Source of the DNA: Pseudomonadota bacterium
Lineage (GTDB): Bacteria > UBA10199 > 2-02-FULL-44-16 > JAAZCA01
Direction of reading: 5' to 3'
DNA length: 64,000 nt
NCBI GenBank assembly: GCA_043798915.1
Contig: JAZDOG010000101.1
Coordinates: 1 to 64,000, forward strand
Below the pieces are notes generated by a model. That model ran no database searches. It saw only the letters and a list, made by a program, of their open reading frames with translations, and had not been told where the DNA came from. Shown one piece after another: positions 15,227 to 60,298 of this stretch (positions within the stretch are counted from its first letter, which is position 1; each line of letters begins with the position of its first letter). Made by a program: the position numbers and the translations under genes.

Positions 15227-16026
15227 GAGAGGTCATTGCGGAGAAATTGAAAACCGTTTCATCGTCTGGGGAGAAGTACAACATCCTCCGGGAATACCTG
15301 CAGGCCCTCGTCCTAAAGTGCATCGAGGAGAAGAGACATGTGGGGAGGATCGCGTTTGTGGGCGGCACTGCGCTAAGGTTCCTTTTCGATCTGAGGAGAT
15401 TTTCGGAGGACCTCGATTTTTCGCTGGTGCGCCCTGAAGGCTTCGACTTCGAGGAGCTGCTCGCGGATGTCGGGGCCTCATTCGAAGCGTGGAATATCGT
15501 CGTCGAGTTCAAATCAAAGGCTGCGGGGGCCGTCGTAAACTCTTTTTTGAAATTCCCCGATCTCATGTTTGAAAACGGGCTCGCCCACAGGAGGGACCAG
15601 AAACTTTTCATCAAGCTCGAGATCGACTGCAACCCGCCGGAGGGCTTCACCACCGGGTTCAGCTTCAATCAAAAATATCTGCCGATGAATATCTTCCATT
15701 ATGACCTGCCATCCATGTTCGCAGGAAAGCTGCACGCGATCCTCCTCAGGCAGTTCACGAAGGGGCGGGATTTTTTCGATCTGATGTGGTTTCTGGGAAA
15801 AAAGGTCGAGCCGAACCTCGTGCAGCTTGAGAACGCAATCCGCCAGACGACGGGCGAGGATGTCAAACTCACCCCGGCAATTTTAAGGGAGAGCCTCAAA
15901 AAGAGGATCTCGGAGGCTGACTTTAAAAAGATTCGGAATGAGCTGGTCGTATTCGCGGAAGACAAGGACGACGTCAAATATGTGACCAGGGACGCGCTGA
16001 TGCAACTCGTGGGGCAGGCGATGTGA
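15223..16026 (+). CDS. AbiEii-family nucleotidyltransferase toxin
   Basis: FVGGTALR..RFSEDLDF, IKLEID, GKLHAIL..KGRDFFDL. Confidence 0.9.
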   Translation: MREVIAEKLKTVSSSGEKYNILREYLQALVLKCIEEKRHVGRIAFVGGTALRFLFDLRRFSEDLDFSLVRPEGFDFEELLADVGASFEAWNIVVEFKSKAAGAVVNSFLKFPDLMFENGLAHRRDQKLFIKLEIDCNPPEGFTTGFSFNQKYLPMNIFHYDLPSMFAGKLHAILLRQFTKGRDFFDLMWFLGKKVEPNLVQLENAIRQTTGEDVKLTPAILRESLKKRISEADFKKIRNELVVFAEDKDDVKYVTRDALMQLVGQAM

Positions 16027-18660: not shown

Positions 18661-20258
18661 AAAGTGTTAGGATAGCAGCGCTCGTTTGGACGGCGCTCGC
18701 AATTGCCGCGGCCTGCTCATCGTGCGACTGGCGCGTGACGCGCGATCCCGACGTCCTCGCCGATTCGCTCCCTGCGGACCCTCCGACTCTCAATCCCATC
18801 CTTGCGACCGAAGTCACCGCTGGCGCCATCAACAAGTATGTCTATGAGTCGCTGCTCGATCTCGACAACAGGACGCTCGAGTTCAAGCCGAAGCTGGCCA
18901 GGCGCTGGGAGGTGTCGCCCGATCATCTCTCGTACACATTCTGGCTGCGGGGCGGCGTCCAATGGCACGACGGAGAGCCCTTCACGGTCGACGACGTCAT
19001 CTACTCATTCGAGAGGATACGCGACCCCAAAGTGGACGCGGCGCCGCTGCGCAACTATTTCCGCGACGTGAAGCGCATCGAAAAGGTCGGGAACGATGCG
19101 GTGAGGTTCCTCTATGCGAGGCCCTACTTCAGGGCGCTGGAGATGCTTGGGGGCATGACGATCATTCCGAGGCACGTCTTCGGCGACGGCGCCGATTTCA
19201 ACAGCCACATGGCGGGCCGCGAGCCCATAGGCACCGGGCCCTTCAGGTTCGCCGGCTGGAAGACCGGCCGCGAGATAAGGCTTGAGAGGTTCGATGGATA
19301 CTGGGGAGATGCCCCCGCGTTCAAGGGCATCGTCTACAGGATCATCCCGGACCAGATGTCCGCATTCCAGCTCCTCAAGAAGGGCGCGCTGGATATCGGC
19401 TCCCTGCGCGCGATACAGTGGGTGAGGCAGACGGAGAGCCCGGCCTTCGGCGAAAAATTTGCGAAGCATCGCTACTTCCTCCCCAACTGCTCGTTCATCG
19501 GCTGGAACATGGGGAGGCCCTTATTCTCCGACAGGCGCGTGCGCATAGCCATGACGATGCTCGTCAACAGACAGGAGATACTCAAGCAGGCGCTGTTCGG
19601 ACAGGGAGAGGTTATAGCAGGCGACTTCTACCGCTTCGGCCCTGACTACGATGCCTCGCTTCAGCCATACCCCTACGATCCGAAAGAGGCGGCGCGGCTC
19701 CTCGACGAGGCCGGCTGGATCGACCACGACGACGACGGCGTGCGCGATCACGACGGCGTTCCCTTCCGGTTCACGATACTCTCGCCGGCGGGAGGCCAGC
19801 TGGGCAGGAGCCTGAGCCTCTTTCTGCGCGAGGAACTCTCGAAGGTGGGGATAGTCGCCGACATCCAGCAGCTGGAGTGGGGGACGATGCTCGAACTCAT
19901 CGGCCGGCGCGACTTCGACGCCGCCATCTTCGGCAGGAGCATGCCGCTGAACCATGACCCGTATCAGGTCTGGCATTCGACGCAGGTGGCGGAGGGTTCG
20001 AACTTCGTCGGGTTCAAGGACAAGAGGGCAGACAGGCTGATGGAGCAGGCCCGCATGGAGTTCGACCCGAAGAGGCGCTCCGCCTTCTACCGCGAGTTCC
20101 AGAGGATAGTCCAGAGGGAGGAGCCGTACACGTTCCTCTTCACCAACCCTTCTCTCGTCGCGGTTGCGAAGCGCTTCGAGAACGTGCGCGACTACAGGCT
20201 GGGCCTGGATGCCCTCGAATGGAAGGTGGGTCCCTGGCCGATTCTTACGGAGTGGTAG
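18657..20258 (+). CDS. ABC transporter peptide-binding protein (family 5)
   Basis: DPPTLNP, LARRWEVS, LRGGVQWHDGEPFTVDDV, PIGTGPF, DRRVRIAM. Confidence 0.93.
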   Translation: MKSVRIAALVWTALAIAAACSSCDWRVTRDPDVLADSLPADPPTLNPILATEVTAGAINKYVYESLLDLDNRTLEFKPKLARRWEVSPDHLSYTFWLRGGVQWHDGEPFTVDDVIYSFERIRDPKVDAAPLRNYFRDVKRIEKVGNDAVRFLYARPYFRALEMLGGMTIIPRHVFGDGADFNSHMAGREPIGTGPFRFAGWKTGREIRLERFDGYWGDAPAFKGIVYRIIPDQMSAFQLLKKGALDIGSLRAIQWVRQTESPAFGEKFAKHRYFLPNCSFIGWNMGRPLFSDRRVRIAMTMLVNRQEILKQALFGQGEVIAGDFYRFGPDYDASLQPYPYDPKEAARLLDEAGWIDHDDDGVRDHDGVPFRFTILSPAGGQLGRSLSLFLREELSKVGIVADIQQLEWGTMLELIGRRDFDAAIFGRSMPLNHDPYQVWHSTQVAEGSNFVGFKDKRADRLMEQARMEFDPKRRSAFYREFQRIVQREEPYTFLFTNPSLVAVAKRFENVRDYRLGLDALEWKVGPWPILTEW

Positions 20259-20268
20259 GATGAAATCA

Positions 20269-20303
20269 CCCCTCCTTTGTAAGGAGGGGCAAGGGGAGGT
20301 AGA
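20269..20303. repeat. Short palindromic repeat (copy 2)
   Basis: Near-identical to 4036..4070. Confidence 0.8.
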
Positions 20304-20311
20304 CATCGAAG

Positions 20312-20370
20312 CTGTCATCGCGAGGAGCCCTTCGGCAGACTCGGGGCGACGTGGCGATCCCGTGGAGGCC
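20312..20370. repeat. Left arm of a GTCATCGCGAGG...GATGAC-type palindromic element
   Basis: Complementary to 27088..27160 (GATCCCGTGGAGGCC vs GGCTTCATGGGATC; CTGTCATCGCGAGG vs CCTCGGGATGACAG). Confidence 0.6.
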
Positions 20371-20485
20371 CGGCCATAATCCGCCGGCAAACGGTGTGCG
20401 CGCAGGGTTTTTAAGGCGGTTGCAGAGATATAAAGAGTGTCGTAGGATCATTTTTGGCGTAAAAAGACCATCTTGATGAGAACGT

Positions 20486-20699
20486 GATAAACAATGGAAC
20501 CGATAAGGTCCTCGCTTCGGCTCGCCGCCTCAGAAGTCGGCGGCTCGCCTGCGCCTCACTCGCCGAGCTTTTAGGCTTCTGTTTTCGGCTCGTGCCCCGC
20601 AGCGCGGATTCCCACGCTGCGGGACTTCGGCGTTAGATAGATCTTCCTGTCGGAAGGTCGCAGACGCCGCTCGGCACCTCATCGGTTCCATTGCTTATC
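20486..20699. mobile_element. MITE-like hairpin element, left copy
   Basis: 19-bp terminal IR with one mismatch (GATAAACAATGGAACCGAT/ATCGGTTCCATTGCTTATC); body is the reverse complement of 28538..28685 plus a ~65-bp insert. Confidence 0.7.
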
Positions 20700-20869
20700 C
20701 AGAGCCCGCCGACCGGCCAAAAGCGAGGCGTTGCGCTCGCGGGGCCCAGCGGTGTATAAATTGTGAAATTATTAAGGCTTGAGTGGTTCTCATATTTCAT
20801 GAGTAGTTGAAGCGTTAGCTCAGTGCCTTTTTGTTCCGTGATAGAAGGTTTCAACAACAGAGGATTAAA

Positions 20870-22639
20870 ATGTGGCCAGACAAAGAGTCGAGTAGTGATT
20901 ATCTAAATTTTGGAGAAGTTTCCCAGCTTGCAGTTGATATCTTAACTTCACCTCCCATGTTGCCTGTTTCTCTGGGAGTGTTTGGTAATTGGGGTGCCGG
21001 GAAGTCTTCTCTTTTGAAGTTGATCGAGAATGGTTTGCAATCGGATGGCGCGGATCGACTGGTAATAAATTTTGATGCTTGGTTGTATCAAGGATATGAT
21101 GACGCTCGCGCAGCTTTGCTTGAAGTTATAGCCAGAAATTTGCATAAGGCCGTTAAGGATAATGAAAGTCTTCTTCAAAAAACAAAAAGGCTTTTAGCCA
21201 GAGTAGACGGTTTTCGAATGCTTGGCTTTATCGCGGAGGGCGTTGCATTAGTTCATGGCGTTCCTACAGGAGGTATCCTATATCGTGGCGTTTCTGCAAT
21301 TTCAAATTTAACTGATGGCATTCAAGGCGAAGAGTATCAGGATTTAACAAGATCAGCGTCAGAAGTTATTGGAGAAGTAAAGAAGCTCATCAAGCCACCC
21401 CCCGATGAAACGCCACCACAGCAAATTGAAGCCTTCAGAAAAGAGTATAGCGAAATCCTAAACGAACTAGGCAAACCACTTATAGTAATCATTGATAATC
21501 TTGACAGGTGTCTTCCTTCAAATGCTATTCATACTCTGGAAGCGATTCGTTTGTTTTTATTTTTACCTAACACTGCTTTTGTTATTGCAGCAGATGAGGA
21601 GATGATAAGAATTGCGGTTGCAGAATATTTTAAGGGGTCGTCAGGACGACACCATATTGATTACCTAGATAAGCTTATTCAGGTTCCAATTAATGTTCCT
21701 AAAGCTGGTTTACTCGAAATTCGTTCGTACCTTTTTATGCTTTTTGCCATAGAACACGGAGTGGAAAGCGATCAACTAGAAACCTTACGTAAGGGACTGG
21801 AAGTTTCACTGCAAAGGTCCTGGAATGAAGATCCTATTTCTAAAGATGCTGCACTTAAGCTAACTGGAAAATCTGAGGATGGAAAACTAGCTACGGCATA
21901 TGAGTTGGCCGATAGAATTGCGCCAATATTAGCAACGTCGCCCATTATTCACGGAAACCCTAGAATTGTTAAACGTCTGCTCAATGTAGTAAGAATGCGG
22001 AGCAAAATTGCAAGGCGGCGTGAGATGCCCCTTAGCGAAGAAGTAATTACAAAACTAGTGATTTTTGAACGTTGCGCTGGAGTAGAGGCTACCACCGAAC
22101 TTTATAAGTTAGTTGATGCAGAATCTGGAAAACCAAAAATTCTGACTCAGCTGGAAAGTGCCGGCACAGAAGAACTTCCGTCTGATGCTCCAAATAGCTG
22201 GGGCAATAATCCCACGACCAAAAAATTCATTTTGGATTGGATAAAGCTTGAACCATCGCTCAAAGATAAAGACCTGCGTCCAGCTATTTACCTTTCACGG
22301 GAAACAATGCCTATAGGTGCCTATGTTATAGGGTTGTCTCCTAAAAGTCGGGAAGCTTTAAATACTCTGGCAAATGTTAGTGCAATCTCGTCTCCTGAGG
22401 GAAAGAAAACGGCAGAAAGCATACCATTAGAAGATAGGGTTCCTGTTATGGAGGGAATTGTTGATCATCTACGCGAAGTTGCAGATTGGTCGAAACAACC
22501 AAAGGGATTTGCTGGGGCTGTGTTGCTAGCTGAGATTTCCCCAGATGCAGCCAAAATATTTAAAAGGTTTGCCGATGGTTTAGGCAACAAGAAACCGTGG
22601 ATGAACGCTATGATTAAGGATAAAGAATGGAATAGGTAA
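20870..22639 (+). CDS. qatA: Qat anti-phage system KAP-family P-loop NTPase
   Basis: MWPDKES..DYLNF start; Walker A GNWGAGKSS; FDAWLYQGYDDA; Walker B IIDNLDRC; YLDKLIQVP; GNPRIVKRLLN. Confidence 0.88.
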   Translation: MWPDKESSSDYLNFGEVSQLAVDILTSPPMLPVSLGVFGNWGAGKSSLLKLIENGLQSDGADRLVINFDAWLYQGYDDARAALLEVIARNLHKAVKDNESLLQKTKRLLARVDGFRMLGFIAEGVALVHGVPTGGILYRGVSAISNLTDGIQGEEYQDLTRSASEVIGEVKKLIKPPPDETPPQQIEAFRKEYSEILNELGKPLIVIIDNLDRCLPSNAIHTLEAIRLFLFLPNTAFVIAADEEMIRIAVAEYFKGSSGRHHIDYLDKLIQVPINVPKAGLLEIRSYLFMLFAIEHGVESDQLETLRKGLEVSLQRSWNEDPISKDAALKLTGKSEDGKLATAYELADRIAPILATSPIIHGNPRIVKRLLNVVRMRSKIARRREMPLSEEVITKLVIFERCAGVEATTELYKLVDAESGKPKILTQLESAGTEELPSDAPNSWGNNPTTKKFILDWIKLEPSLKDKDLRPAIYLSRETMPIGAYVIGLSPKSREALNTLANVSAISSPEGKKTAESIPLEDRVPVMEGIVDHLREVADWSKQPKGFAGAVLLAEISPDAAKIFKRFADGLGNKKPWMNAMIKDKEWNR

Positions 22640-22643
22640 TAAA

Positions 22644-23396
22644 ATGGGAACATCTCAATCAAGCCCAGGTCCCGTTGGCATATCTCCCTTGGTGCCGCCA
22701 TGGGGAGATGATCAGCCACAGAAACCCTTACCCCCACCTGAACCTCGAAGGTTTGCGAGCTTTCGACAATCGCTTGGAAGCTTTGTTAAGGACAGAGACC
22801 TGGGGAAACTTAAGTCAGTGCTTGGTCACTATGCATCCACTGCATCTGGTGGTGGTAAGATAGTTGCTCGTCGCATGAACGGTGCAGCGCAGGCTGGCGC
22901 AGATCTGTATAATTTTCTCAGTGGAGTTCAAAAGTCTACTATCAAAGAGGCCGCGTTTAATTTAGCTGCATTGGCCAATCAACCATGCGAAGTGGCAATC
23001 AACATAATTGTTCAGGCGCTCACTGAAGATGGAGGAGATGCTGATAAAAATCGAGCATCCATGACAAATGCATTATGTGAAGCTCTCGATGGGATTGACA
23101 CTTTTGATCCAATGAAAATTACGGATGAGATTATCCTCACTACGATGATTTGTTTTCTGACTGAAAGTATTTTTCATCAAATAGTAATGGATGCTGGTAA
23201 AGCGTGGAACAAAGCAGACACCCCTTCAAAAGTCGTGAATGCTGAAAATGATTTGAGAGAACTTATTAAGGCAGTCGTCGATAAATATATGGCCCCCAGT
23301 TTATCAGGAAAAGTTAATTCATTTACTCGTCAGAGGATGCTTCGACTTGAGAAAGAAGTGTTGGTTAACGTATGGGCGGAATGGGAGACCTATTAG
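22644..23396 (+). CDS. qatB: Qat anti-phage system protein QatB
   Basis: Characteristic N-terminus MGTSQSSPGP...PLVPPW; position between the KAP NTPase and the QueC-like gene. Confidence 0.85.
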   Translation: MGTSQSSPGPVGISPLVPPWGDDQPQKPLPPPEPRRFASFRQSLGSFVKDRDLGKLKSVLGHYASTASGGGKIVARRMNGAAQAGADLYNFLSGVQKSTIKEAAFNLAALANQPCEVAINIIVQALTEDGGDADKNRASMTNALCEALDGIDTFDPMKITDEIILTTMICFLTESIFHQIVMDAGKAWNKADTPSKVVNAENDLRELIKAVVDKYMAPSLSGKVNSFTRQRMLRLEKEVLVNVWAEWETY

Positions 23397-24691
23397 TGAC
23401 AAGAGTGATAATTCATCATGATTGCAATAAGCTTCCACGCCAACGAAAAAGGTTGGTCTCGGTGCACATTTATGGCTTGGGCAATGGAAACTGTTCTAGT
23501 ATTGGTCATCCTCTAATCGAAAAAATTAAGCGGCTCGGTATAACACTGTCTCCGGCTGTGATGGATTTCCTTACGATTGCCTTGGCGGTTAATGCGGCTG
23601 ATTCGTTTGTTAAACGCCGAGAAATGGTTGATGGATGGACACGAGAAATTATTTTGCAGGTTTCGCTTTGTGAACCAGAGTCATGGTTAAAGGTAAAAAG
23701 TAGGCTTGAAAAAACTCTACGCTTTCTAAGCGGCGATTTATGGAAGTTGGAAATTAATGATAATGGCTTCAAACCACCCAAACCATATAGAAGCCAAGAT
23801 CGTTTTAAGTTGTTAAGATTGAAAGGGCTTGATTCTGTTAGCCTGTTTTCGGGTGGGCTAGATAGCGCAATAGGTGTTATTAATTTGCTAAATGAAGGCA
23901 AAAAACCACTTTTGGTTAGCTATGCATACAGAGGTGACAAGTCTCATCAAAACGCTGCTGAAAAGTATCTTCAAGGTGAATATTCAAGGTTTTGGGCTAA
24001 CGCGTATCCTCAATCAGCTAATGGAGAATATGAAATTAGCATGCGCACTCGTAGCATTAACTTTCTCGCCTTAGGGATAATTGGATGCTACGCTGTTGGA
24101 TATGTGAATGGTTTAAAGAATCTTCCCCTTTATGTGCCGGAAAATGGTTTTATATCACTTAATGTGCCCTTAACGCCACGCCGCATTGGTTCATTGAGTA
24201 CACGAACTACACATCCATATTTTCTATGTTCTATTGAGGAAATTTTACAATGTGTTGGCATTAATAGTAAAATAATTAACCCTTACCAGTTTCAAACAAA
24301 GGGAGAAATGGCGCAGTTATGCAGCAACCTGAATATCCTGAAGAATATGGTTTCGAAAACAGTATCGTGTGGCCACTGGAAAAGAAGGAACAAACAATGT
24401 GGCTGCTGTGTTCCCTGTATAATAAGGAGGGCGGCTATTAAACAAGCTGGATTGAATGAACCTGCACTATATCATTTTCAAGACCTTAAGAGCGTACTTA
24501 ATGACGATAATACGAAAGATGACCTCTTTGCTCTTTCAAACGCAATATCTCACTTGTCATCGCGAAATATAAACTCATGGATAATGAATAGTGGGCCTAT
24601 ACCATCGAAGCAATTTGAAGATTATAAATCGCTCTTTACGCGAGGATTGAAGGAAGTCGAAAGTTTCTTGCTGGGCGAGCATGTATTATGA
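23396..24691 (+). CDS. qatC: Qat anti-phage system QueC-like protein
   Basis: DFLTIALAV..AD..DGWTR, PP-loop LFSGGLDS, RTRS, PENGFISLN, STRTTHP, NPYQFQTKGEM, SCGH..CGCCVPCIIRR. Confidence 0.9.
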   Translation: MTRVIIHHDCNKLPRQRKRLVSVHIYGLGNGNCSSIGHPLIEKIKRLGITLSPAVMDFLTIALAVNAADSFVKRREMVDGWTREIILQVSLCEPESWLKVKSRLEKTLRFLSGDLWKLEINDNGFKPPKPYRSQDRFKLLRLKGLDSVSLFSGGLDSAIGVINLLNEGKKPLLVSYAYRGDKSHQNAAEKYLQGEYSRFWANAYPQSANGEYEISMRTRSINFLALGIIGCYAVGYVNGLKNLPLYVPENGFISLNVPLTPRRIGSLSTRTTHPYFLCSIEEILQCVGINSKIINPYQFQTKGEMAQLCSNLNILKNMVSKTVSCGHWKRRNKQCGCCVPCIIRRAAIKQAGLNEPALYHFQDLKSVLNDDNTKDDLFALSNAISHLSSRNINSWIMNSGPIPSKQFEDYKSLFTRGLKEVESFLLGEHVL

Positions 24692-24773
24692 CATTAATGT
24701 TAATCTCTACTCAAAATCTGATTCACCGTGTCACTTTGTTAAAGACGTAGAAATGCAAGGAGCGATAAACAAT

Positions 24774-25892
24774 ATGAAAAGTTCTGAAGCAACCAAGTTA
24801 AACATCGATTCATCACCGTCGATTTTGCCACGTCCAATACTCGTGGCAAGCTTTACTCAGAGAATGGATTCGTGCCTGTCTGGTGACTCCCTACAACCTC
24901 TCCTCCTTCTCGGCAACGCACGAACCGTCCTTGACCAATTCCCTACATCATCCATCGATTTTGCTATGACCTCGCCGCCATATTGGGGAAAACGTGAGTA
25001 TGAAAGCGGAGGTATTGGTCTTGAGAATAACTACGGGGATTTCATCCGTAATCTGTCGGATGTGTTTATGGCACTTTCTCGTGTTCTTAAACCAGAGGGC
25101 TCATTCTGGCTCAACATAGGCGACACTTACCAGGATAAAAAATTGGTGGGTATTCCTTGGAGGGTAGCACTAGAACTTACAGATAAACAGGGCTGGATTC
25201 TTCGTAATAGTGTAATCTGGAATAAAATCAAGAGTGGAATGGACAACACTAAAGATAGGCTCGGAAATATTCACGAACATGTATTTCACTTTGTTAAACA
25301 ACCAAAATATTATTACGATGCTGATGCTATTCGCTCAAAACCAAGAGAGGCACGAATAGTGAATGGCGCTGTTGTATCTGCTACCGGAGTATCAGGCGTT
25401 CGCTACAAGCGACAAATCGAACTCTCTACATCATTGAATAAAGAGGAAAAACAGGCGGCTTCCAAGGCGTTGAGCCAGATTCTGACAGATGTAGGTGCAG
25501 GAAAAATCTCAGATTTTCGAATGATTATTCGCGGACAACAACGTGCAACACACTCTGACAAAGAAAAGGTGTCAGGAAGGGCAAAGGAATTGCGTGATAA
25601 AGGATTCTACTTCCTTCGGTACCATCCAAACGGAAGCAAGCCAGCCGACGTGTGGGATATTATGCCAGAAGATACACAACAAAGGAAGATGCATTATGCA
25701 TCGTATCCAGTCGACTTATGTCGGATTCCTATTCTTGCAACTTGTCCTCCCGGAGGCGTGGTGCTCGATCCGTTCTGTGGAACCGGTACAACACTTATTG
25801 CAGCTCGTAACCTTGGGCGAAAGTCAATTGGAATTGACATATCAAGTCAATACCTGAAAATTGCGGAGGAAAGATGCACGACGCTTCTATGA
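24774..25892 (+). CDS. Site-specific amino-DNA methyltransferase (beta class, probably N4-C)
   Basis: Motif IV TSPPYW precedes motif I VLDPFCGTGT; start uncertain (24681, 24753 or 24774). Confidence 0.92.
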   Translation: MKSSEATKLNIDSSPSILPRPILVASFTQRMDSCLSGDSLQPLLLLGNARTVLDQFPTSSIDFAMTSPPYWGKREYESGGIGLENNYGDFIRNLSDVFMALSRVLKPEGSFWLNIGDTYQDKKLVGIPWRVALELTDKQGWILRNSVIWNKIKSGMDNTKDRLGNIHEHVFHFVKQPKYYYDADAIRSKPREARIVNGAVVSATGVSGVRYKRQIELSTSLNKEEKQAASKALSQILTDVGAGKISDFRMIIRGQQRATHSDKEKVSGRAKELRDKGFYFLRYHPNGSKPADVWDIMPEDTQQRKMHYASYPVDLCRIPILATCPPGGVVLDPFCGTGTTLIAARNLGRKSIGIDISSQYLKIAEERCTTLL

Positions 25893-26740
25893 GTACAGTT
25901 GTCGAACTATTTGGTCATGCCGTTGATAGCCAGCGGAAAGATTGGGCACGTGTTGTACGTAATCAGCAATGTCCATTTTTAGAAAAGACATGTTACAAGG
26001 TTCGAAAGAGCGATCCTAATATCTCAATAGGTTCATGTACTGTACTCTACGGTAGGACCAAAGAACCTGTTGTTATCTGCCCAACACGCCTTCTTGAACG
26101 ACACCAGATATTCACCGATTGCTTGCATCTTTTAACCATGCATGAGCCGGGGAATGAGCTCCACATTATTCCCGAAGTTTCAATACCTGGTGGAAGCGTT
26201 GATTATTTCTTGGCTTCCGCGCTAAAGGGAAAGGTAAAAGATTTCGTTGGTATCGAGATTCAGACGTTGGATACTACAGGTACCGTGTGGCCGGAACGTC
26301 AGCGACTGCTCAAAAAACTTGGAATTCCGCGTAGAGACAAAGAAGAGTTATCCAACAAGTCCTACGGTATGAACTGGAAAATGACCGCCAAAACGATCTT
26401 AGTCCAGATGCACCATAAGATTCAAACTTTTGAGCATGTCAACAAAAAGCTAGTACTTATCTTACAGGATAAACTTTTCCAGTACATGACTAATGAATTT
26501 ACATTTGGACATTTAAATAAACCGGCAATCCTGGGCGATTCAATGCATATGCATGTGTATCAATTAGAAAAGCAGGTTAACCGACTGTTTAAGTTAGGGA
26601 TGAATGCTCGATTAAGCACGGACTCCGAAGGAATTGCGGCATGCCTTGGTCTCCAAGCGGAAGCTCGAGTTGAGTTGACTCAAATTGTTGCTGCTCTTGA
26701 AGCGAAGCTATCTCCAAGCACGCTTCTCAAGCCAGTATAA
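25889..26740 (+). CDS. NotI-family type II restriction endonuclease
   Basis: Four-Cys cluster CPF..C.K...GSC...CPTR, followed by PD-(D/E)xK-like VDYFL...GIEIQTLDTTG and GMNWK; ATGA-coupled to the methyltransferase. Confidence 0.8.
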   Translation: MSTVVELFGHAVDSQRKDWARVVRNQQCPFLEKTCYKVRKSDPNISIGSCTVLYGRTKEPVVICPTRLLERHQIFTDCLHLLTMHEPGNELHIIPEVSIPGGSVDYFLASALKGKVKDFVGIEIQTLDTTGTVWPERQRLLKKLGIPRRDKEELSNKSYGMNWKMTAKTILVQMHHKIQTFEHVNKKLVLILQDKLFQYMTNEFTFGHLNKPAILGDSMHMHVYQLEKQVNRLFKLGMNARLSTDSEGIAACLGLQAEARVELTQIVAALEAKLSPSTLLKPV

Positions 26741-26878
26741 CTGTGGTTGTTCCAAAAGGCATCGGCCTTAGAAAAAGAGTTTCCCGATGTGGAAGTTGTT
26801 GAAGATGTTGGTTTTTAAATGGGGGTGCTGCAAAAGTGGTCAGTTGTGAGCAATTGATGCAGATGTTATTTCAGCGCG

Positions 26879-27061
26879 GTTACTGAGGACTGCATAACTT
26901 ATTGCGCAGATGACACAGGATGATGAGCCGAGACAAGGAAGATGAGCAAAAAGCGCGGAGGCGTAGCCATAGCTACGTTGAGCACTTTTTGCGAAATCTG
27001 ACGCAGTCGCAGGCCATCAGCCGAAGTCAGATGTGTAATAAGTTATGCAGTCCTCAGTAAC
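26879..27061. mobile_element. MITE-like element with 25-bp perfect terminal inverted repeats
   Basis: GTTACTGAGGACTGCATAACTTATT ... AATAAGTTATGCAGTCCTCAGTAAC; internal hairpin CGTAGC-CATA-GCTACG; non-coding. Confidence 0.8.
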
Positions 27062-27087
27062 ATATGCTAACCAAACGGTGCGAGCTG

Positions 27088-27160
27088 GCTTCATGGGATC
27101 CCCGCGGCGCTCCTCGGTTGCCACGATCTCCATGGCAAAACCCGCGCCTCGGGATGACAG
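27088..27160. repeat. Right arm of the split palindromic element
   Basis: Complementary to 20312..20370. Confidence 0.55.
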
Positions 27161-27290
27161 GCAGGGGGAGAAATGAGCAGTTTGCTCGTTCATTCAAGGC
27201 CGACTGGCTGATTTGCTCCTGCCACTAAACCTCCGGCGGGCAGGTAGGGCGCGGCAATCGGGGGAGAGCAAGAGACCTAGAGGCCATAAT

Positions 27291-28304
27291 ATGAAACTAG
27301 TCAAACGATTGGATAATCAATTCGCCGAAGTTGTAAGGATGATTCATGAGGCCCGGTACAATGCTATCAAGAGCGTCAACACCGAGCTGGTCAAACTATA
27401 TTGGAGCATAGGCGGGTATGTCAGCAGAAAGATCGAATCCGCGGAATGGGGCGATGCCGTTGTGGACAGCCTTGCCGATTTCATTCAAACTAACGACCCG
27501 GAATTTAAGGGTTTTACGCGACGGAGCCTTTACAGGATGCGCCAGTTTCATGAAACATACCCGCAGAAGAAATTTGTGTCGGCAGTGCTGACACAAATCA
27601 GCTGGACCAACCACCTGCTCATACTCTCCAAAACTAAATCAATGGAGGAGCGTAAATTTTACCTGATGTTATCCGTGAAGGAAAAATATAGTTCGCGCGA
27701 GCTTGAGCGTCAGATAGACAGCGGTTATTATGAACGAGCAATGCTTTCCAGGAAAAAAGTGTCGCCAGCGCTGATACAAATTCACCCTGGTATAACAGAC
27801 GTTTTCAAAGACATCTACGTTTTGGATTTCCTGAGTCTCCCAGCGATGCACAGCGAAAAAGACCTTCAAACAAGTATTGTTGCCAATTTAAGGGACTTTA
27901 TCCTTGAATTCGGCAAGGATTTTACATTCATCGGCCAAGAATATCGAATTCAAGTGGGTAAGAACGACTATTTCATTGATCTTTTATTCTTTCACCGAGG
28001 ACTGAAATGTCTCGTTATGATCGAATTGAAGATAACCGATTTTAAGCCGGAGTATCTTGGCAAGCTGAATTTCTATTTGGAAGCGCTGGACCGCGATATT
28101 CGAAAAGAGGGAGAAAATCCAAGCGTAGGCATTATTCTATGCAAGTCAAAAGACGATGAAGTTGTGGAATACGCGCTCAGCCGCAATCTATCGCCTGCCA
28201 TGATTGCTGAATATAAAACAAAGCTCATCCCTAAAAAAATATTGCAGAAGAAGCTACACGAGTTGTTTATGCTAAACGAACCAGACATAAAGAATGACAG
28301 GTAA
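27291..28304 (+). CDS. DUF1016/YhcG-family PD-(D/E)xK nuclease
   Basis: LYWSIG, WGDAVV, SLYRMRQF, SSRELERQI, FKDIYVLDFL, IDLLFFHR..IELK, GKLNFYL. Confidence 0.92.
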   Translation: MKLVKRLDNQFAEVVRMIHEARYNAIKSVNTELVKLYWSIGGYVSRKIESAEWGDAVVDSLADFIQTNDPEFKGFTRRSLYRMRQFHETYPQKKFVSAVLTQISWTNHLLILSKTKSMEERKFYLMLSVKEKYSSRELERQIDSGYYERAMLSRKKVSPALIQIHPGITDVFKDIYVLDFLSLPAMHSEKDLQTSIVANLRDFILEFGKDFTFIGQEYRIQVGKNDYFIDLLFFHRGLKCLVMIELKITDFKPEYLGKLNFYLEALDRDIRKEGENPSVGIILCKSKDDEVVEYALSRNLSPAMIAEYKTKLIPKKILQKKLHELFMLNEPDIKNDR

Positions 28305-46215: not shown

Positions 46216-46259
46216 AATGAGGTGGAGCAGAACCTTCCCCTGTTTATCAGGAGGTAAAG

Positions 46260-48500
46260 ATGGCGGTCTGTGGAAGGAATCGAATCAAGTGCAAAACCTT
46301 GGCTGATCTTCCGGTCTGCGACCCCCAAAAGGACTGGAATTTGCTCAAGCTTGACCCGCTCAGCATGGAGACTCCGGAGTGGATGGGGATCGATCACCTG
46401 CTTGTAAATAAGACCGCCACTCGAGGCACGGTCCTTCGTTTTGTCCGACCGGAATTATTGGAAGATTTGAAAGCGTCGTTATCCGAAGGATTTCGCCCGA
46501 CCGAACCTGCAGAGCTGGATGAATTCATATCCCAGGATACTGTCAGAGCACACGGATATGCCGGCTTCTGCAAATCTACGCATGTGATTAAGGATGATGG
46601 CAGGCAGCTGTGGGGCGTATACAAGTGGCACGGCACTCCCAGTGAATATCTCGCTGTTTTCAACAAGTACAATTCCGACAAACACATCCAGATGGAGTCC
46701 AACGGTTTCGAACTCTCCGTCGAGGAGATGACGGGCTTGATCGGGGCGCTGAAACTCGGAAGCAAGGACTACTACTGCGACGGAGATGGTTGTCCCCGCG
46801 AACTGCCTGTCCAATCGCAGAGCGCCTGCGGATCCAACTACACCAAGGGCACCTATTTTTTCACATCGAAACCCGAACGCCTCAATAACCTGATCGAGAT
46901 GCTCGGGAAGAAAAAAGAGGGGGATGGCTATCAGCTGAAGGTCGGCGGTCTCGCCGATCTCCGCCGGGAGGAGTTGATCAAACATTTGAAGGACATCCTG
47001 CCCAAACCGTCGGAGCAGAAAACGCCACAGTACGTATGGTGGCTTGTTGGCACCAATTTCCTGGTGGCTGCGGCCATCGTGGGCCCCCAGCTCAAGGAAC
47101 TCTATCGGTGGTGGAGGGGCAGGGTGAAGACGGTGGATTTTGGGGCCATCGTGAAAAAGAAGATCGAGGCCGATTCCTCATATACGGTGAAGGGCCGCGA
47201 GGCCGAGGCGAGGGAGGCCTGGAAGATGACGGACGCGGATCCAGGAATCGATGAATTTCCGCATCTGCTGATCGATCTCGCGACCGGCGAGGGCAAGGAC
47301 AAGCTTTACGAGGAGATGATAATCCTCAAGGAGAAGGGCGACCCGTCCGTGCCGGAAAGATGGCGGAACGCCGCCGTCGTGGATGTGGATCCTGCCAGCT
47401 TTCAGTCCGACACCAAATGGCGCGGCAATGTGGCCGACAAGGTGACCGAGATCGGGGAAAAAGCCAGGAAGGGCCCGTTGGTAGTGAGGATGCGCGAAGG
47501 GGATAAAATATTCCTGAGCGGGGGGGCTTCAAGCAGCGACTCCGAGGTGGTCGCCGGGCTCATGCTCGCGAAGCTGGAGGAGCCAGGGGTGCGCGAAAAC
47601 CTCCTTCTGGTGATAACCACGAGCCGCGGCGATGAGATGATTGCGAAACATCCGGATCTTTTCCGCCGCTTCAACAAGCCCGGGCTTCACATCTTCAGCG
47701 TGGCCGAAGTGATCGATGCCCTCGACGGGCCCACCAGGAAGGCATACGAAAAGAAACGAGGCGTCAAGATTCCGCGCGAGGTTATCGGCGCGGCTGCGCG
47801 CATTGCTGAATCCTATTACCGGCCATCGAGGGTCGTCGTGAATGCAACGACAAGAAAAGAGTTCATGCTTGCGCGCTTCGACGCCACGAAGAACCTCCTG
47901 TCCGATGCCGCAAAGATGGCCGCGAAACGCGGCAAAGGAACGGTTGTCACGGTCAGCGACGTCATCGCCGCGGCAGAGGGGCGCATCGGCAAAAAGCTCG
48001 ATCACGGTCAGGTCGAGGCCAGGATCGAAAAAGAAAGAGGGGTGGAGGAGGCGGCCAAGGCCAGGGCGGGCACGGAAGCGGCGCCAGCAAAGGGTGGTGC
48101 GCCTGTGTGCAGGGCGGACGAGGCCCCTGGCGAGCGGCCGGCTCCCGTTGATAACAGGACTGAGGCCTTGCGCCTTGTGATCGTTGCAGACAGAGAGTTG
48201 TCCACCCGGCTGCCGCGATACGACGATTTGCCTGAGGCAAGAAAAAGAGCGATTGTGGACTGCTTATATAAAACTTTGTTGGATAATGGCTTCAGGCAGA
48301 CATATGTCCGGGATGGCAGAATAACGGCTGGGGGCTTAGAACAATTGATCGCTCGCGTAAAAGGGTATGCATCAGTCGCCGCGCCGGAAGGGCCGGTGCG
48401 TCCTGAACGAGCGGCCGATGCTGATGGTGCTGATAAGGATGGCAGAAAAAAGGACACTGAACGTGATAAGGGGCGAAGGGGCGAAGTTCCGGGCAAATAG
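46260..48500 (+). CDS. Orphan membrane-anchored protein with a degenerate ClpA/B-type AAA+ domain and shared C-terminal module
   Basis: SD AGGAGG; Cys-containing N-domain; TM segment YVWWLVGTNFLVAAAIVG; Clp NBD1-like region 47187..47912. Confidence 0.75.
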   Translation: MAVCGRNRIKCKTLADLPVCDPQKDWNLLKLDPLSMETPEWMGIDHLLVNKTATRGTVLRFVRPELLEDLKASLSEGFRPTEPAELDEFISQDTVRAHGYAGFCKSTHVIKDDGRQLWGVYKWHGTPSEYLAVFNKYNSDKHIQMESNGFELSVEEMTGLIGALKLGSKDYYCDGDGCPRELPVQSQSACGSNYTKGTYFFTSKPERLNNLIEMLGKKKEGDGYQLKVGGLADLRREELIKHLKDILPKPSEQKTPQYVWWLVGTNFLVAAAIVGPQLKELYRWWRGRVKTVDFGAIVKKKIEADSSYTVKGREAEAREAWKMTDADPGIDEFPHLLIDLATGEGKDKLYEEMIILKEKGDPSVPERWRNAAVVDVDPASFQSDTKWRGNVADKVTEIGEKARKGPLVVRMREGDKIFLSGGASSSDSEVVAGLMLAKLEEPGVRENLLLVITTSRGDEMIAKHPDLFRRFNKPGLHIFSVAEVIDALDGPTRKAYEKKRGVKIPREVIGAAARIAESYYRPSRVVVNATTRKEFMLARFDATKNLLSDAAKMAAKRGKGTVVTVSDVIAAAEGRIGKKLDHGQVEARIEKERGVEEAAKARAGTEAAPAKGGAPVCRADEAPGERPAPVDNRTEALRLVIVADRELSTRLPRYDDLPEARKRAIVDCLYKTLLDNGFRQTYVRDGRITAGGLEQLIARVKGYASVAAPEGPVRPERAADADGADKDGRKKDTERDKGRRGEVPGK

Positions 48501-48511
48501 GAGGACATGCT

Positions 48512-49327
48512 ATGACGGTATACAATATTGATCCGACGACAAAAGTTGTGCTGGATGGTCCATACCAAGGGGAGATCGTGGCGCCCTGCTCCGAGCTCTC
48601 CGGCACGATGCGCCTGCCTGATGTGCTCTTGTCCAGGGATGAAGGCGTGGCGATACGTTCCCGGCACAATCTGAACACATCGCAATTCCATCTGGATATC
48701 GAGTCGCCGGTGAATGGTGTTTACTGCATGGCGTATAAAAATCCCTCGATGAACAAGTCGTTCGTTGACAATTTCAAGTGTTCCTACGTGGGAGAATCGC
48801 CCGTGATGGCATGGTTCCGCGACTTGGTGCCTTTTATGGAGACATCCAGATGCTCGACAGTGAAAAAGGGCATGAAGCCTTTTCTTCCGCACGAGGAGCC
48901 CGGGGAACTCGCTAAACTCTGGGATGGCACTCGCAACGGTCTGACGTTTGCCGTTGGCATGGCCATCGTGGACAGGGTGCTGAAGAGGTATGCCGGCTGG
49001 TCTCCGCTGGAATCGGCTTTGAAGACTGCCGCAAACTGGATGGGAAGGGGTGGGCCTGGGAGCGCAGGCGGCGCGGGCGGTGCAGCAAGCGGCGCAGGCG
49101 AAGGCTCCGGGGCCAGTGGGGCGCCACCTGCTGCCGAGGCCCCCGGAGGTCCTCCACAATCAACTTTCAGTCTTCCTTCGATCCCTGTTCCAACGCCGGA
49201 AGAAGCCGCAAAGATAGGAACATGGATGTTGATTATGGGGATTATGGGAATTATGCTCGACAGTGCATTGAAGGCAGCGTGTCCAGTCTTTATAATAAGG
49301 CCCGCCGAAGAGAGAGTGGAGGCCTAA
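48512..49327 (+). CDS. Orphan protein with hydrophobic segments and a Gly/Ala-rich linker
   Basis: SD GGAGG; co-oriented in the cluster; no family recognised. Confidence 0.7.
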   Translation: MTVYNIDPTTKVVLDGPYQGEIVAPCSELSGTMRLPDVLLSRDEGVAIRSRHNLNTSQFHLDIESPVNGVYCMAYKNPSMNKSFVDNFKCSYVGESPVMAWFRDLVPFMETSRCSTVKKGMKPFLPHEEPGELAKLWDGTRNGLTFAVGMAIVDRVLKRYAGWSPLESALKTAANWMGRGGPGSAGGAGGAASGAGEGSGASGAPPAAEAPGGPPQSTFSLPSIPVPTPEEAAKIGTWMLIMGIMGIMLDSALKAACPVFIIRPAEERVEA

Positions 49328-50857: not shown

Positions 50858-51988
50858 TTAGAATATGAGCTGATATTTAGTTGCCGGTCCCTTCCCCTTT
50901 TTCTGCAGAAAGCGTTCCTCCAGCAATATATTCAAGGCATAAACCGCGGTGCGCCGCGGAATTTTAGTGTATTTCACAACATCCCCTGTGCCGAGCTTTT
51001 CTTCCGGATGCTCCTTGAAACAGGCAAGGACCTTCCTGGGCGCCTCTGCCAGACTCAGGAAATCATCGTATCTTCTGGCGTAGAATTCAATGTCATGCCG
51101 CAGAGCGGCGGAGATCATTTTGAGCATGAAGGTCAGGAAATATTCGATTTTGTATTTCTTCGGGTCCTGCAGGAATCTCCCTTTCGAACACTTTCTCAGG
51201 ACCAGATAATATTCCTCCTTGTTCTTTTCGATGTGCCGGTCGAGCGCGATATATGGCATGATTCCAGCCAGGTTTTTGTCGTCTGACTGAAGGATTGCGA
51301 GGGCAAAGAGACTTCGCCCGATGCGTCCGTTTCCGTCCTGAAAGGGATGTATTGCCAGAAAACGGAAGACGAGTTCGCATGCGACGGCGATGCTCCATGG
51401 ATGCGCCTTGAGATTTGCGTTGTACCAGTCGATGAGTTCATGCATTGCCGCGATCGTGACCGGGCCCGGATCGGCAGTCTTGAGGACATCCTTCACTGTG
51501 TTGGTGCCCAGGATCATCTCGATCACGCTGTTCGGAGAGGTCTTGTATTTGCCGAGGTAATGCGCAGCAGGAGGGTAAAAACGGAGCAGCTCGGCATGCA
51601 GTCCTCTGACGGTCGTTTCCGAGAGCGGAAACAGCTCTCTCGCCTGCGCATAGACGATGGTGAGCATATTGCGGCAGCCAGCGACCTCCTCGACGCTCCT
51701 CTCGCTCTCTTTCGAGAGCTTGTTTTCGATGTATTTCTTTTTCTGAATGAAGGCGGTCGGCCTGCCGTCCTGGCTGAGCATTTCATCCATCCAGTCGATT
51801 TCGACGTCAGTGAGGATGGCATTTTCGATCCTGGTCGTGGAGCCTATCGTGCTTATCAGGGCATATCTATGAATTGACTGTTGATGGTCAGGGGAGAGGG
51901 TATCGAGAAATGCCCGCTTTTCAGCAGATAAATCAGTGATTTCTTTAAGTTTTTTTGTCAGATCGTCTGTGATGTTGAAAGAAAGCAT
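50858..51988 (-). CDS. Fic family protein with C-terminal HTH
   Basis: Fic motif HPFQDGNGRIGR; N-terminal inhibitory-type STTRIEN; C-terminal winged HTH (IPRRTA...GKGPATKY). Confidence 0.93.
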   Translation of the reverse strand: MLSFNITDDLTKKLKEITDLSAEKRAFLDTLSPDHQQSIHRYALISTIGSTTRIENAILTDVEIDWMDEMLSQDGRPTAFIQKKKYIENKLSKESERSVEEVAGCRNMLTIVYAQARELFPLSETTVRGLHAELLRFYPPAAHYLGKYKTSPNSVIEMILGTNTVKDVLKTADPGPVTIAAMHELIDWYNANLKAHPWSIAVACELVFRFLAIHPFQDGNGRIGRSLFALAILQSDDKNLAGIMPYIALDRHIEKNKEEYYLVLRKCSKGRFLQDPKKYKIEYFLTFMLKMISAALRHDIEFYARRYDDFLSLAEAPRKVLACFKEHPEEKLGTGDVVKYTKIPRRTAVYALNILLEERFLQKKGKGPATKYQLIF

Positions 51989-51999
51989 GCAGATAGATT

Positions 52000-52048
52000 G
52001 TGCAATATTGTGCAACTATATGCAACTATTTATTGCACAATATTGCAC
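52000..52048. promoter_or_regulatory. Operator-like inverted repeat upstream of fic
   Basis: GTGCAATATTGTGCAA / TTGCACAATATTGCAC perfect 16-bp IR with additional TGCAA repeats. Confidence 0.65.
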
Positions 52049-58778: not shown

Positions 58779-59387
58779 ATGGGGAAGACTGATATCTTCA
58801 TGAAGGCGGAGGTGATCTTTCGGGCTCGTGGAGGGATCCTTCGGACATCCGAAGCGATCGAACTTGGGGTCCACCCCCGCACGCTCTACGCAATGAGAAG
58901 CGAAGGTTGGATAGTCGAACTGGCGCGTGGTCTCTATCGGCTCGCTAAATTCCCTGACCTCAAGTCCCCTGACCTTGCGATTGTTGCATCGAAATGTCCG
59001 GGTGGAGTCATCTGTCTCATTTCAGCCCTTTCCTTTCATGGAGTCACGACACAGATCCCGCATCAGGTCGACGTCGCGCTCATGAGGGGACGGCGCCCGC
59101 CGAGGATCACCTATCCCCCCATCAGGGTCTTCCGATTTGGCAAGGAAGCATTCGGGGACGGGATCGAAACCCACACGATCGATCACGTCACGGTCCGGGT
59201 GTACAGCGTGGCGAAGACGATCGCCGATTGTTTCAAATTTCGCAATCGCATCGGGATCGATGTGGCTGTCGAAGCTCTCAAACTCAGCCGCGAGCGCCGC
59301 AAGGCCACGCCGGCAAAAATCATGGAATACGCCCGCATCTGCAGGGTGGAGCGGGTGATTCAACCCTATCTGGAGGCAATGATATGA
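58779..59387 (+). CDS. AbiEi-family type IV TA antitoxin
   Basis: LARGLYRL, ICLISALSFHG.TTQIP, VYSVAKTIADCFKFRN. Confidence 0.9.
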   Translation: MGKTDIFMKAEVIFRARGGILRTSEAIELGVHPRTLYAMRSEGWIVELARGLYRLAKFPDLKSPDLAIVASKCPGGVICLISALSFHGVTTQIPHQVDVALMRGRRPPRITYPPIRVFRFGKEAFGDGIETHTIDHVTVRVYSVAKTIADCFKFRNRIGIDVAVEALKLSRERRKATPAKIMEYARICRVERVIQPYLEAMI

Positions 59388-60298
59388 AGGCAGAAGCCAA
59401 AAGGAACATGGCTCACTCCGTCCATCAGCGTCTGCTCAATGTTGCGCGCGGGACGATGCGCCCTTTCAATGAGTTGCTGCAGCACTACGCCATCGAACGC
59501 TTCCTGTATCGCATCGGGAGGTCGAAACATGCCGAAAAGCTCTTGTTGAAAGGAGCGTTGCTCCTCCGTGTCTGGAACGTCCCGATGGCCCGGCCCACGA
59601 TGGACATCGATCTCCTTGGCAGGGTGACTGGAACGCAAGATGAGCTCGCTGTGATTCTCAAGGATTGCATGCAGATCGAGGTAGAGGACGATGGCCTCGT
59701 CTATCTGCCCGACACTCTCAGGATTGAAGCGATCACGAAAGAGGCCGATTATCAGGGGACGCGGATGAGGTTCACCGCAAAACTCGGCAACGCACGCGTC
59801 CAGGTACAGGTGGATGTGGGTGTCGGTGATATCGTGTATCCCCGTCCCGTCTGGATCGACTTCCCTACGATTCTCGGGAACGAATCGCCTCATCTTCTGG
59901 CATACACACCAGAGAGCGCCATCGCCGAAAAGTTTCAAGCGATGGTGGCGCTGGGTATGGCGAATAGCCGAATGAAGGACTATCACGACATCTGGATGCT
60001 GGCGAATACCCTTGAATTCGACGGGAAGATTTTCTCAGAAGCGATCAGGAGGACGTTTGATCGGCGAGAGACACGGCTTCCAGAATTGACGCCACCTGCC
60101 CTGAACGAAAAGTTTCATTCAGACGAGACGAAGAGGACTCAATGGAGCGCTTTCATCCGTGGACTGAAGCTCAAGGATGCATTGGCCCTGGAAAATGTGG
60201 TCGTCCTTGCGGCTCAAATGCTGATGCCTCCGTCGATCGTGATGTCGGCGAACAAACCATTCGAGATGAAGTGGAACCCCGGCGGGCCGTGGAAATAG
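59384..60298 (+). CDS. AbiEii/AbiGii-family nucleotidyltransferase toxin
   Basis: ERFLYRI, LLKGA..RPTMDIDL, IAEKFQAM..NSRMKDYHD; ATGA overlap. Confidence 0.9.
   Translation: MKAEAKRNMAHSVHQRLLNVARGTMRPFNELLQHYAIERFLYRIGRSKHAEKLLLKGALLLRVWNVPMARPTMDIDLLGRVTGTQDELAVILKDCMQIEVEDDGLVYLPDTLRIEAITKEADYQGTRMRFTAKLGNARVQVQVDVGVGDIVYPRPVWIDFPTILGNESPHLLAYTPESAIAEKFQAMVALGMANSRMKDYHDIWMLANTLEFDGKIFSEAIRRTFDRRETRLPELTPPALNEKFHSDETKRTQWSAFIRGLKLKDALALENVVVLAAQMLMPPSIVMSANKPFEMKWNPGGPWK

Follow-up and report, generated by a model that had tools for sequence, protein, structure and literature searches.

The stretch of DNA considered here, hereafter the window, covers positions 1 to 64,000 of contig JAZDOG010000101.1. 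It carries on its forward strand a gene for a 746-residue protein, P0001, in which an N-terminal domain and a hydrophobic helix are followed by a single AAA+ module of the type found in the first ATPase ring (D1) of Clp/Hsp100 unfoldases. In the best reading of the data, P0001 represents an undescribed, lineage-restricted family derived from this D1 ring. The source genome (labelled G000) comprises 2.34 Mb and is 97% complete; in it, P0001 lies on contig C98. The features of the gene and its product are as follows, with coordinates in the window.

46249..46254, + strand: Shine-Dalgarno sequence AGGAGG, read from the sequence, 5 nt 5' of the ATG at 46260
46260..48500, + strand: P0001 gene, intact frame, encoding a 746-residue, putatively membrane-anchored, single-ring AAA+ protein of the Clp D1 type
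46260..47030, + strand: N-terminal domain (residues 1-257), family-specific, with conserved Cys; in alignments C104 is nearly invariant and P179 invariant
47031..47087, + strand: hydrophobic helix, putative membrane anchor (residues 258-276), Kyte-Doolittle value 1.44, Lys/Arg-rich on its C-terminal side
47127..48029, + strand: AAA+ module of the Clp/Hsp100 D1 type, large and lid subdomains (residues ~290-590), with sequence, profile and fold matches; predicted local distance difference test score (pLDDT) mostly 80-93
47286..47300, + strand: deviant Walker A motif G-E-G-K-D (residues 343-347), Lys kept and Thr replaced by Asp
47412..47426, + strand: D1 pore loop T-K-W-R-G (residues 385-389), aligned to AKYRG of the ClpB of the same genome
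47478..47498, + strand: deviant Walker B strand L-V-V-R-M-R-E (residues 407-413), with R412 at the Asp position and the Glu kept as E413
47619..47621, + strand: sensor-1 Thr, T454 (Thr in 41 of 49 aligned rows)
47664..47669, + strand: Arg fingers R469 and R470 (Arg in 46/49 and 48/49 rows), aligned to ERRF of ClpB
48123..48497, + strand: C-terminal shared module (residues 622-746), three predicted helices and a basic tail ending RRGEVPGK

The AGGAGG sequence fixes the N-terminus of P0001. The open frame around the gene measures 759 codons and thus begins only 13 codons 5' of the ATG, which leaves no room for a signal peptide. The gene is preceded by gyrA, a gene for a tetratricopeptide repeat (TPR) lipoprotein and ndk, with a gap of 228 nt after ndk.

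Homology to the D1 domain of Clp/Hsp100 proteins

P0001 is a member of the AAA+ superfamily, and the homology of its D1 module to the first nucleotide-binding domain (NBD1) of Clp proteins is real and well above chance. The initial annotation had proposed this likeness from nine short motifs, all of which are present; they span residues 310-551, corresponding to 47187..47912 of the window. Database comparisons bear the likeness out in sequence and in fold. A phmmer search of the PDB returned a 701-residue Clp ATP-binding subunit (6lsy_A), which we take to be ClpL, at E 1.9e-6 over query residues 342-525, followed by ClpC at about 1e-3 and ClpA at 0.06-0.09. The ClpB encoded in the same genome was matched by BLASTP at 26% identity over 182 residues (E 1e-6), pairing GEGKD with GVGKT, TKWRG with AKYRG, RMRE with FIDE (VVRMRE with ILFIDE) and LFRRF with LERRF. 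A profile built from 12 family members reached about 1e-30 with canonical ClpA/B/C proteins, the match extending over its positions 270-545. The AlphaFold2 model of P0001 has a mean pLDDT of 66, with most of the ATPase part at 80-93. A Foldseek search with this model found the D1 domains of ClpC, ClpA, ClpC1, ClpB and Hsp104 at E 1.5e-12 to 1e-10 over some 300 columns, and the model covers the 268-residue ClpC1 chain at a template-modelling (TM) score of 0.82. The AAA+ hallmarks that align to Clp D1 are K346, E413, T454, R469/R470 and the helical lid.

The curated family models respond only weakly to this protein. Among the NCBIfam models, ClpA (TIGR02639) gave E 8e-5 and 21 bits against a cut-off of 993, and ClpB (TIGR03346) gave 15.7 bits against 1232; these sub-threshold hits are all that NCBIfam yields. 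The Pfam scan returned 0 families at E<=1, so that no Pfam model covers P0001 and no Clp_N, AAA_2/D2 or Peptidase_M41 domain was detected in it. P0001 itself does not attain Pfam AAA (PF00004), whose threshold of 21.2 bits is passed by its homologues P0004, P0006, P0007 and P0029 with 22.8-39.5 bits.

In agreement with the initial annotation, P0001 has neither a Clp N-domain nor a second NBD. The family profile detects one AAA region per protein, and the remaining 150 residues of P0001 are taken up by the C-terminal module. Since only about 50 residues separate the lid motif DATKNLL (at residue 541) from the end of the lid, there is also no room for an M-domain, the coiled coil that is typical of ClpB and ClpC. 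ClpA, ClpC and ClpX dock onto ClpP through a loop with the tripeptide [LIV]-G-[FL]; no [LIVM]-G-[FL] tripeptide occurs in the 746 residues of P0001.

Family, distribution and subfamilies

The initial annotation regarded P0001 as an orphan, which is incorrect: the family consists of about 50 sequence clusters and includes a paralogue in the same genome. A word-indexed homologue search with the full-length protein returned only P0001 itself. Six-frame searches of related genomes gave matches in 19 of 41, the source genome counted, including 11 of the 12 other genomes of the same taxonomic family, with the best homologues 35-42% identical and lying in open frames of 790-1080 residues. The 12-sequence profile, run against 1.84 billion representative sequences, gave 9565 matches at E<=1e-3, of which 60 reached E<=1e-30. 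About the first 50 are family members (clusters at 50% identity) ranking above canonical Clp proteins, and from P0058 onwards the matches have the canonical order Clp_N, AAA, AAA_lid_9, AAA_2 and ClpB_D2-small. A profile of the N-domain alone, which cannot cross-match Clp proteins, was found in 14 of 93 genomes of the phylum. These were distributed over three taxonomic families (f1, 11/12 plus G000; f3, 1/1; f9, 1/1), with none in the other 21.

The common plan of the family is a novel Cys-containing N-domain, a helix, the D1 module and a basic tail. Two subfamilies can be distinguished. Subfamily A, to which P0001 belongs, carries the series TGEGKD, K-Y-R-G, YISEID, GTTSRG and RRFNW. In subfamily B the corresponding series is GESGxGKD, I-R/V-G, YFPELAD, GSTT and RR.P; it is represented in the source genome by a paralogue of 716 residues on contig C71, which has the same plan and is 28% identical to P0001 over 530 aligned residues (BLASTP). 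An unrooted FastTree phylogeny, of which only the split was used, placed all 46 deviant domains and one canonical domain (P0049) behind a single branch with support 0.90. It was calculated from 149 D1-type domains, which remained of 179 rows once the 30 in which gaps exceeded 35% had been left out, and its sample is biased in that it was drawn from the top matches to the family profile.

In keeping with the initial annotation, no described family with this architecture was found in Pfam, NCBIfam or the literature searched (subscription journals not covered), nor did that literature contain a description of a GK-D Walker A motif in AAA+ proteins. Many predicted N-termini of the AAA+ and partner proteins of relatives read M-x-S/G-A/G-G-E (loci L011, L012, L013, L020, L021, L034 and L036). 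These residues may simply come from translating a GGAG ribosome-binding site, the real start lying a few codons further downstream, and the start codons in these relatives are therefore uncertain.

The nucleotide site and the pore loop

At the level of residues the initial annotation described the site correctly. The Walker A Thr and the Walker B Asp are lost (D347 and R412); the pore loop is retained as W387-R-G, and so are both Arg fingers, R469 and R470. To see how these positions vary over the family, the top 53 proteins were aligned to the family profile and rows without the Walker A region were dropped, giving 54 domain rows. The Walker A Lys is present in 53 of these. It is followed by Asp in 43 rows, Glu in 4, Phe in 2 and Thr in 5, the last deriving from three canonical-looking proteins (P0049, P0051 and P0052). 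At the Walker B Asp position Ser (18 rows) and Pro (18) predominate over Glu (5), Asp (4), Lys (3), Arg (2, including P0001) and Ala (1). The Walker B Glu occurs in 50 of 51 aligned rows and the pore-loop Gly in 52. The pore-loop position itself is aromatic in 26 of the 54 rows (Tyr 21, Phe 4, Trp 1, the latter being P0001).

The replacements at the two Walker positions are coupled. Among the 51 rows in which both are aligned, Asp, Glu or Phe after the Walker A Lys never occurs together with the Walker B Asp (0/46), and Thr is always paired with Asp or Glu at Walker B (5/5). An extra Asp is found after the Walker B Glu, at Glu+2 in 28 rows and at Glu+3 in 15, where Clp proteins have His. One family member of 891 residues, in genome G012, has kept the N-domain and helix and yet has the canonical GKT and DE.

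Judged from these alignments, the Walker losses are family-wide, ancient, fixed and coupled. The nucleotide site looks rewired, not decayed, with a pattern of replacements that appears compensatory. Simple decay is disfavoured because the other catalytic residues are near-invariant and because the replacements are coupled.

N-domain, hydrophobic helix and topology

The N-domain, modelled alone, reached a pLDDT of 73. No fold could be assigned to it; the best Foldseek match in the PDB had E 0.18, the wide VIA search gave a best Z of 3.5, and structure neighbours in the Atlas had TM scores below 0.35. A putative transmembrane helix ahead of the AAA+ module, as the initial annotation had it, can be placed at residues 258-276, though its Kyte-Doolittle value is only 1.44; in the model these residues are part of one long helix (259-286). 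An equivalent hydrophobic segment, located 45-90 residues ahead of the GR motif, reaches at least 1.4 in 36 of 43 scanned members, after 7 of 50 members without the search pattern had been left out. Summed over the family, the 15 residues before the helix contain 86 Lys and Arg and the 15 after it 154, which places the ATPase most plausibly on the cytoplasmic side.

The downstream genes

Downstream of P0001 two further genes are found on the same strand.

48512..49327, + strand: P0002, downstream partner, 271 residues, beginning 11 nt after the P0001 stop codon
49353..50729, + strand: P0003, third gene of the cluster, 458 residues, helical, 25 nt after P0002; it carries the same C-terminal module at 50355..50726

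Proteins of the P0002 type begin with an N-domain of about 130 residues, in which two Cys are invariant. Then come a hydrophobic helix with Lys/Arg behind it, a linker rich in Gly and Pro that contains the motif GPK(D/G)P, and a second hydrophobic helix. Their genes occur in 9 of 41 related genomes (G000 counted), and in 8 of these (G000, G004, G006, G007, G009, G011, G012 and G017), which span at least 7 genera, the gene immediately follows one for a family AAA+ protein. In the ninth, G018, an unrelated gene precedes it. The AAA+ loci of G001, G005, G008 and G010 have no P0002-type neighbour or are at a contig edge. As to the identity of P0002, Pfam gave only a sub-threshold match to Prophage_tail (E 0.096) and the Atlas nothing. 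A kinship between the N-domains of P0002 and P0001 was considered and dropped (BLASTP E 0.66). On contig C71 the paralogue is followed, in place of a P0002-type gene, by an open reading frame (ORF) of 1628 codons (locus L029:9178-14061) that has no Pfam match and encodes Gly/Ala-rich hydrophobic stretches.

The C-terminal module

The module that ends P0001 was modelled with low confidence (pLDDT 30-63). It also ends four other proteins of the source genome, namely the C71 paralogue, P0003 and the products of two adjacent genes on contig C31, with 48-58% amino acid identity and 69-80% DNA identity. Outside the source genome it was found only on family members of G018 and G004. A search of 5.8 billion proteins returned only source-genome proteins and one protein of G018, and a widespread signal domain was dropped as its identity in view of this restriction. 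A likeness of the module and its basic tail to type IV secretion signals was also dropped, VirD4, VirB4 and VipB not having been found in the genome. A basic end is a property of the whole family, in which 35 of 50 proteins end in Lys or Arg and 12 of 50 in GK.

The two C31 genes (locus L030:7194-11354, - strand) encode a TPR-like protein of 467 residues and a protein of 919 residues without a Pfam match. The first ~70 residues of the smaller protein are common to P0003, and the larger one contains an internal tandem duplication of about 170 residues.

Other Clp proteins and export systems of the genome

Besides the two family members, ClpB (contig C12; TIGR03346, 1361 bits against a cut-off of 1232) is the only D1-bearing protein of the source genome, which further has two clpP genes. 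Non-flagellar type III export is represented by SctV, which stands alone next to secA on contig C42, and by a cluster on contig C20 with SctS, an EscN-type (SctN-type) ATPase, SctL, a FliG-like protein, SctJ and a TPR protein. This cluster also holds a sigma factor, and its TPR gene is chaperone-like. A flagellar rod protein was not found in the source genome, nor, at 97% completeness, were the type IV coupling protein VirD4, VirB4 and the type VI sheath protein VipB. SctV/FlhA (FHIPEP) occurs in 91 of the 93 genomes of the phylum, and its co-occurrence with the P0001 family (14/93) is uninformative for that reason.

Comparison with known systems

With the D1 of ClpA, ClpB and ClpC the P0001 module shares its fold and a recognizable sequence over ~300 residues. 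The common features are a GR motif before Walker A, a GxGK P-loop, the (K)-aromatic-R-G pore loop, the sensor-1 Thr, the RR fingers and a lid of the AAA_lid_9 type. Compared to these proteins, P0001 has one ring, without Clp_N, M-domain, D2 and ClpP-docking loop. What it has in their place is a putative membrane anchor, a new N-domain of 257 residues, the GK-D Walker A motif, a Walker B strand without Asp and a C-terminal extension with a basic tail.

Two groups of membrane-associated AAA+ proteins offer functional analogies. Msp1/ATAD1 and FtsH resemble the proposed arrangement in that a membrane anchor at the N-terminus precedes a single AAA+ ring, which threads its substrates at the surface of the membrane. 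Both are members of the classic AAA clade with canonical Walker motifs. Msp1 is reported to extract membrane proteins from bilayers, and FtsH to act in membrane-protein quality control. In contrast to FtsH, P0001 has no M41 zinc protease according to Pfam, and in contrast to both its top structural and sequence matches are Clp D1 domains. The Torsins, eukaryotic AAA+ proteins of the endoplasmic reticulum and nuclear envelope, are according to PMC7175109 Clp-related, single-ring and membrane-associated, with a Walker A motif GXXXXGKN and a low, regulated ATPase activity, hydrolysing ATP when activated. According to the same paper they lack Arg fingers, which are supplied by LAP1/LULL1, as well as aromatic pore loops, and they reside in the lumen of the endoplasmic reticulum. 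A non-canonical residue after the Walker A Lys is thus common to Torsins and P0001, whereas P0001 keeps the RR fingers and the Trp/Tyr pore loop that Torsins are reported there to lack. Torsins show that weak, regulated hydrolysis can go together with a non-hydroxyl residue following the Lys (PMC7175109). No Torsin appeared among the top sequence or fold matches of P0001 (phmmer against the PDB, and Foldseek). Msp1 and FtsH can serve as analogues for an anchored ring acting on membrane proteins, and Torsin as an analogue for a deviant Walker A site with regulated activity.

Possible function and mechanism

In view of the above, several functions can be considered for P0001. The one we favour, with chances that we judge to be about even, is that of an ATPase which acts autonomously, is anchored in the membrane and threads polypeptides, and whose non-canonical nucleotide site is probably slow or regulated; P0002 would be the partner with which it works. 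The hydrophobic helix would tether P0001 to the cytoplasmic membrane, with the D1 module on the cytoplasmic side assembling into a ring of its own. The conserved Clp-type pore loop may then grip and thread a polypeptide, for which the N-domain and the two-helix protein P0002 could serve as partner, adaptor or substrate. In the rewired site, an Asp stands in for the Mg-binding Thr, the Walker B Asp is missing, and another Asp is positioned two or three residues after the catalytic Glu. Since the Lys, the Glu, the sensor-1 Thr and both Arg fingers are kept, P0001 has most likely remained able to bind and turn over ATP, though probably at a slow or regulated rate. The argument for an autonomous function is that the deviant site is fixed, the catalytic residues are conserved, and the protein has its own N-domain, anchor and operon partner. 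A bolder version concerns the family as a whole. It would be a working AAA+ motor that hydrolyses ATP without the Ser/Thr-Asp pair, the carboxylate having been relocated to the P-loop (GK-D) and a helper Asp following the catalytic Glu, and the anchored Clp-derived ring might pull on, or insert, its two-helix partner and the proteins with the C-terminal module. We consider this version possible, though doubtful.

Several observations weigh against a threading motor at the membrane, and most of them fit its main rival, a nucleotide-binding, hydrolysis-dead scaffold, in which ATP would be an assembly or switch signal for a static platform or adaptor at the membrane that serves the N-domain, the partner protein and the C-terminal module and threads nothing. 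A large structural survey of P-loop NTPases (PMC9599734) describes Walker A Ser/Thr and Walker B Asp as strictly conserved and hydrogen-bonded, and reports that activity is abolished when either is replaced. P0001 has replaced both members of this pair, and because that text calls the pair essential, the catalytically impaired site proposed in the initial annotation is the textbook expectation. P0001 is moreover the most deviant of subfamily A at Walker B, with VVRMRE against the consensus VVYISE and thus two Arg in the strand. Subfamily B has no aromatic residue in the pore loop, where most non-aromatic rows are aliphatic. The alignment to 6lsy is shifted by one residue, bringing E413 under the Walker B Asp; were this shift correct, P0001 would lack the catalytic Glu. 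The register with R412 at the Asp position and E413 as the Glu is backed by the alignments to ClpC, to the genome's own ClpB and to the canonical rows of the profile, and by the predicted strand 407-412. Two further points concern the membrane rather than the site: the P0001 helix is among the less hydrophobic of the family, and by the positive-inside rule the N-domain of 257 residues falls outside, though it has no signal peptide. ATP binding alone would account for the kept Lys and Arg fingers. A scaffold does not, however, need the invariant Walker B Glu (50/51), the sensor-1 Thr or a KYRG-type pore loop (Tyr, Phe or Trp in 26 rows), and the coupled replacement together with the new conserved Asp near the Glu looks like compensation. 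Torsins (PMC7175109) moreover combine a non-Thr residue after the Lys with regulated hydrolysis. We consider a scaffold without hydrolysis less likely than the threading ATPase, though a serious rival to it.

The remaining alternatives are less probable still. P0001, its neighbours and the other bearers of the C-terminal module could be effectors that are exported, e.g. by a type III system, insert in a target membrane and use the ATP of the target. This would explain why the N-domain has an 'outside' signature without a signal peptide and why the helix is only moderately hydrophobic. It would also give a role to the basic-tailed module, present in five otherwise unrelated proteins of the source genome, and SctV, SctJ, SctN-type ATPase, SctS and SctL genes are at hand in the absence of a detectable flagellar rod protein. 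Known type III signals are N-terminal, not C-terminal. The distributions of SctV/FlhA and of the family show no specific co-occurrence, P0001 and the type III cluster are on different contigs (C98 and C20), and components of type IV and type VI systems were not detected, as described above. We regard export as improbable. The initial annotation had favoured a Clp mimic that co-assembles with the Clp/Hsp100 hexamers of the cell, a prey or a host so as to poison or redirect them. P0001 and Clp proteins do have the D1 fold and the Arg fingers in common, and the genome encodes one class-I Hsp100, ClpB, as a possible target. Against this stand the low identity to the D1 of that ClpB (26%) and the absence of a D2 ring, an M-domain and a ClpP-docking tripeptide that a two-tier Clp particle would call for. 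The family is monophyletic and old, with a conserved N-domain, anchor, partner gene and tail of its own, and it is hard to rationalize why a poison of the cell's own chaperone would be kept in 11 of 12 genomes of the taxonomic family. The mimic idea thus finds no support in the results and appears very improbable. Finally, a decaying pseudogene or chance ORF could be suspected from the divergence of P0001 at Walker B, the largest in its subfamily, and from the lack of a Pfam match. A frame of 746 intact codons with a consensus ribosome-binding site, a conserved gene pair with P0002 and retention of all key motifs are not what decay would leave, and the homologue survey shows a conserved architecture with full-length alignments at 33-36% identity; this explanation can be given practically no weight.

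For the threading ATPase that we favour, the fold and general logic are familiar; what is new is the architecture, the partner protein and the way in which the two changes at the P-loop site are coupled. Should this site be active, the family would be a natural counter-example to the indispensability of the Walker A Ser/Thr and Walker B Asp. Its coupled natural swaps, next to canonical relatives in the same family, would then offer a system for testing how P-loop ATPases handle Mg2+ and the catalytic proton. Should it be inactive, the family would be an example of 'motor' residues that have been retained as a complete set in a role other than that of a motor. In either case the Clp/Hsp100 tree gains a bacterial, putatively membrane-anchored single-ring branch that has a new N-domain and a conserved membrane partner; the nearest known functional analogues, Msp1 and Torsin, are eukaryotic. 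The narrow range, one candidate phylum of uncultured bacteria, limits the general impact.

Other genes in the window

Convergent to the three-gene cluster lies a gene for a Fic/DOC-family protein with the motif HPFxxGNGR (50858-52015, - strand). The region 20000-28300 has a guanine plus cytosine content of 0.42-0.48, compared to about 0.6 in the rest of the window, and looks like an acquired defence or DNA-modification island. Its genes encode a P-loop NTPase of the KAP family, a protein that partly matches QueC, an N6/N4 DNA methylase and a YhcG-type PD-(D/E)xK nuclease, and three ORFs in it have no Pfam match (22644-23396, 25874-26740 and 20831-side neighbours). Two genes for AbiEii-type nucleotidyltransferase toxins, assigned by Pfam to a type IV toxin-antitoxin family, are located at 15211-16026 and 58994-60298, the former preceded by an ORF of 250 codons without a Pfam match.

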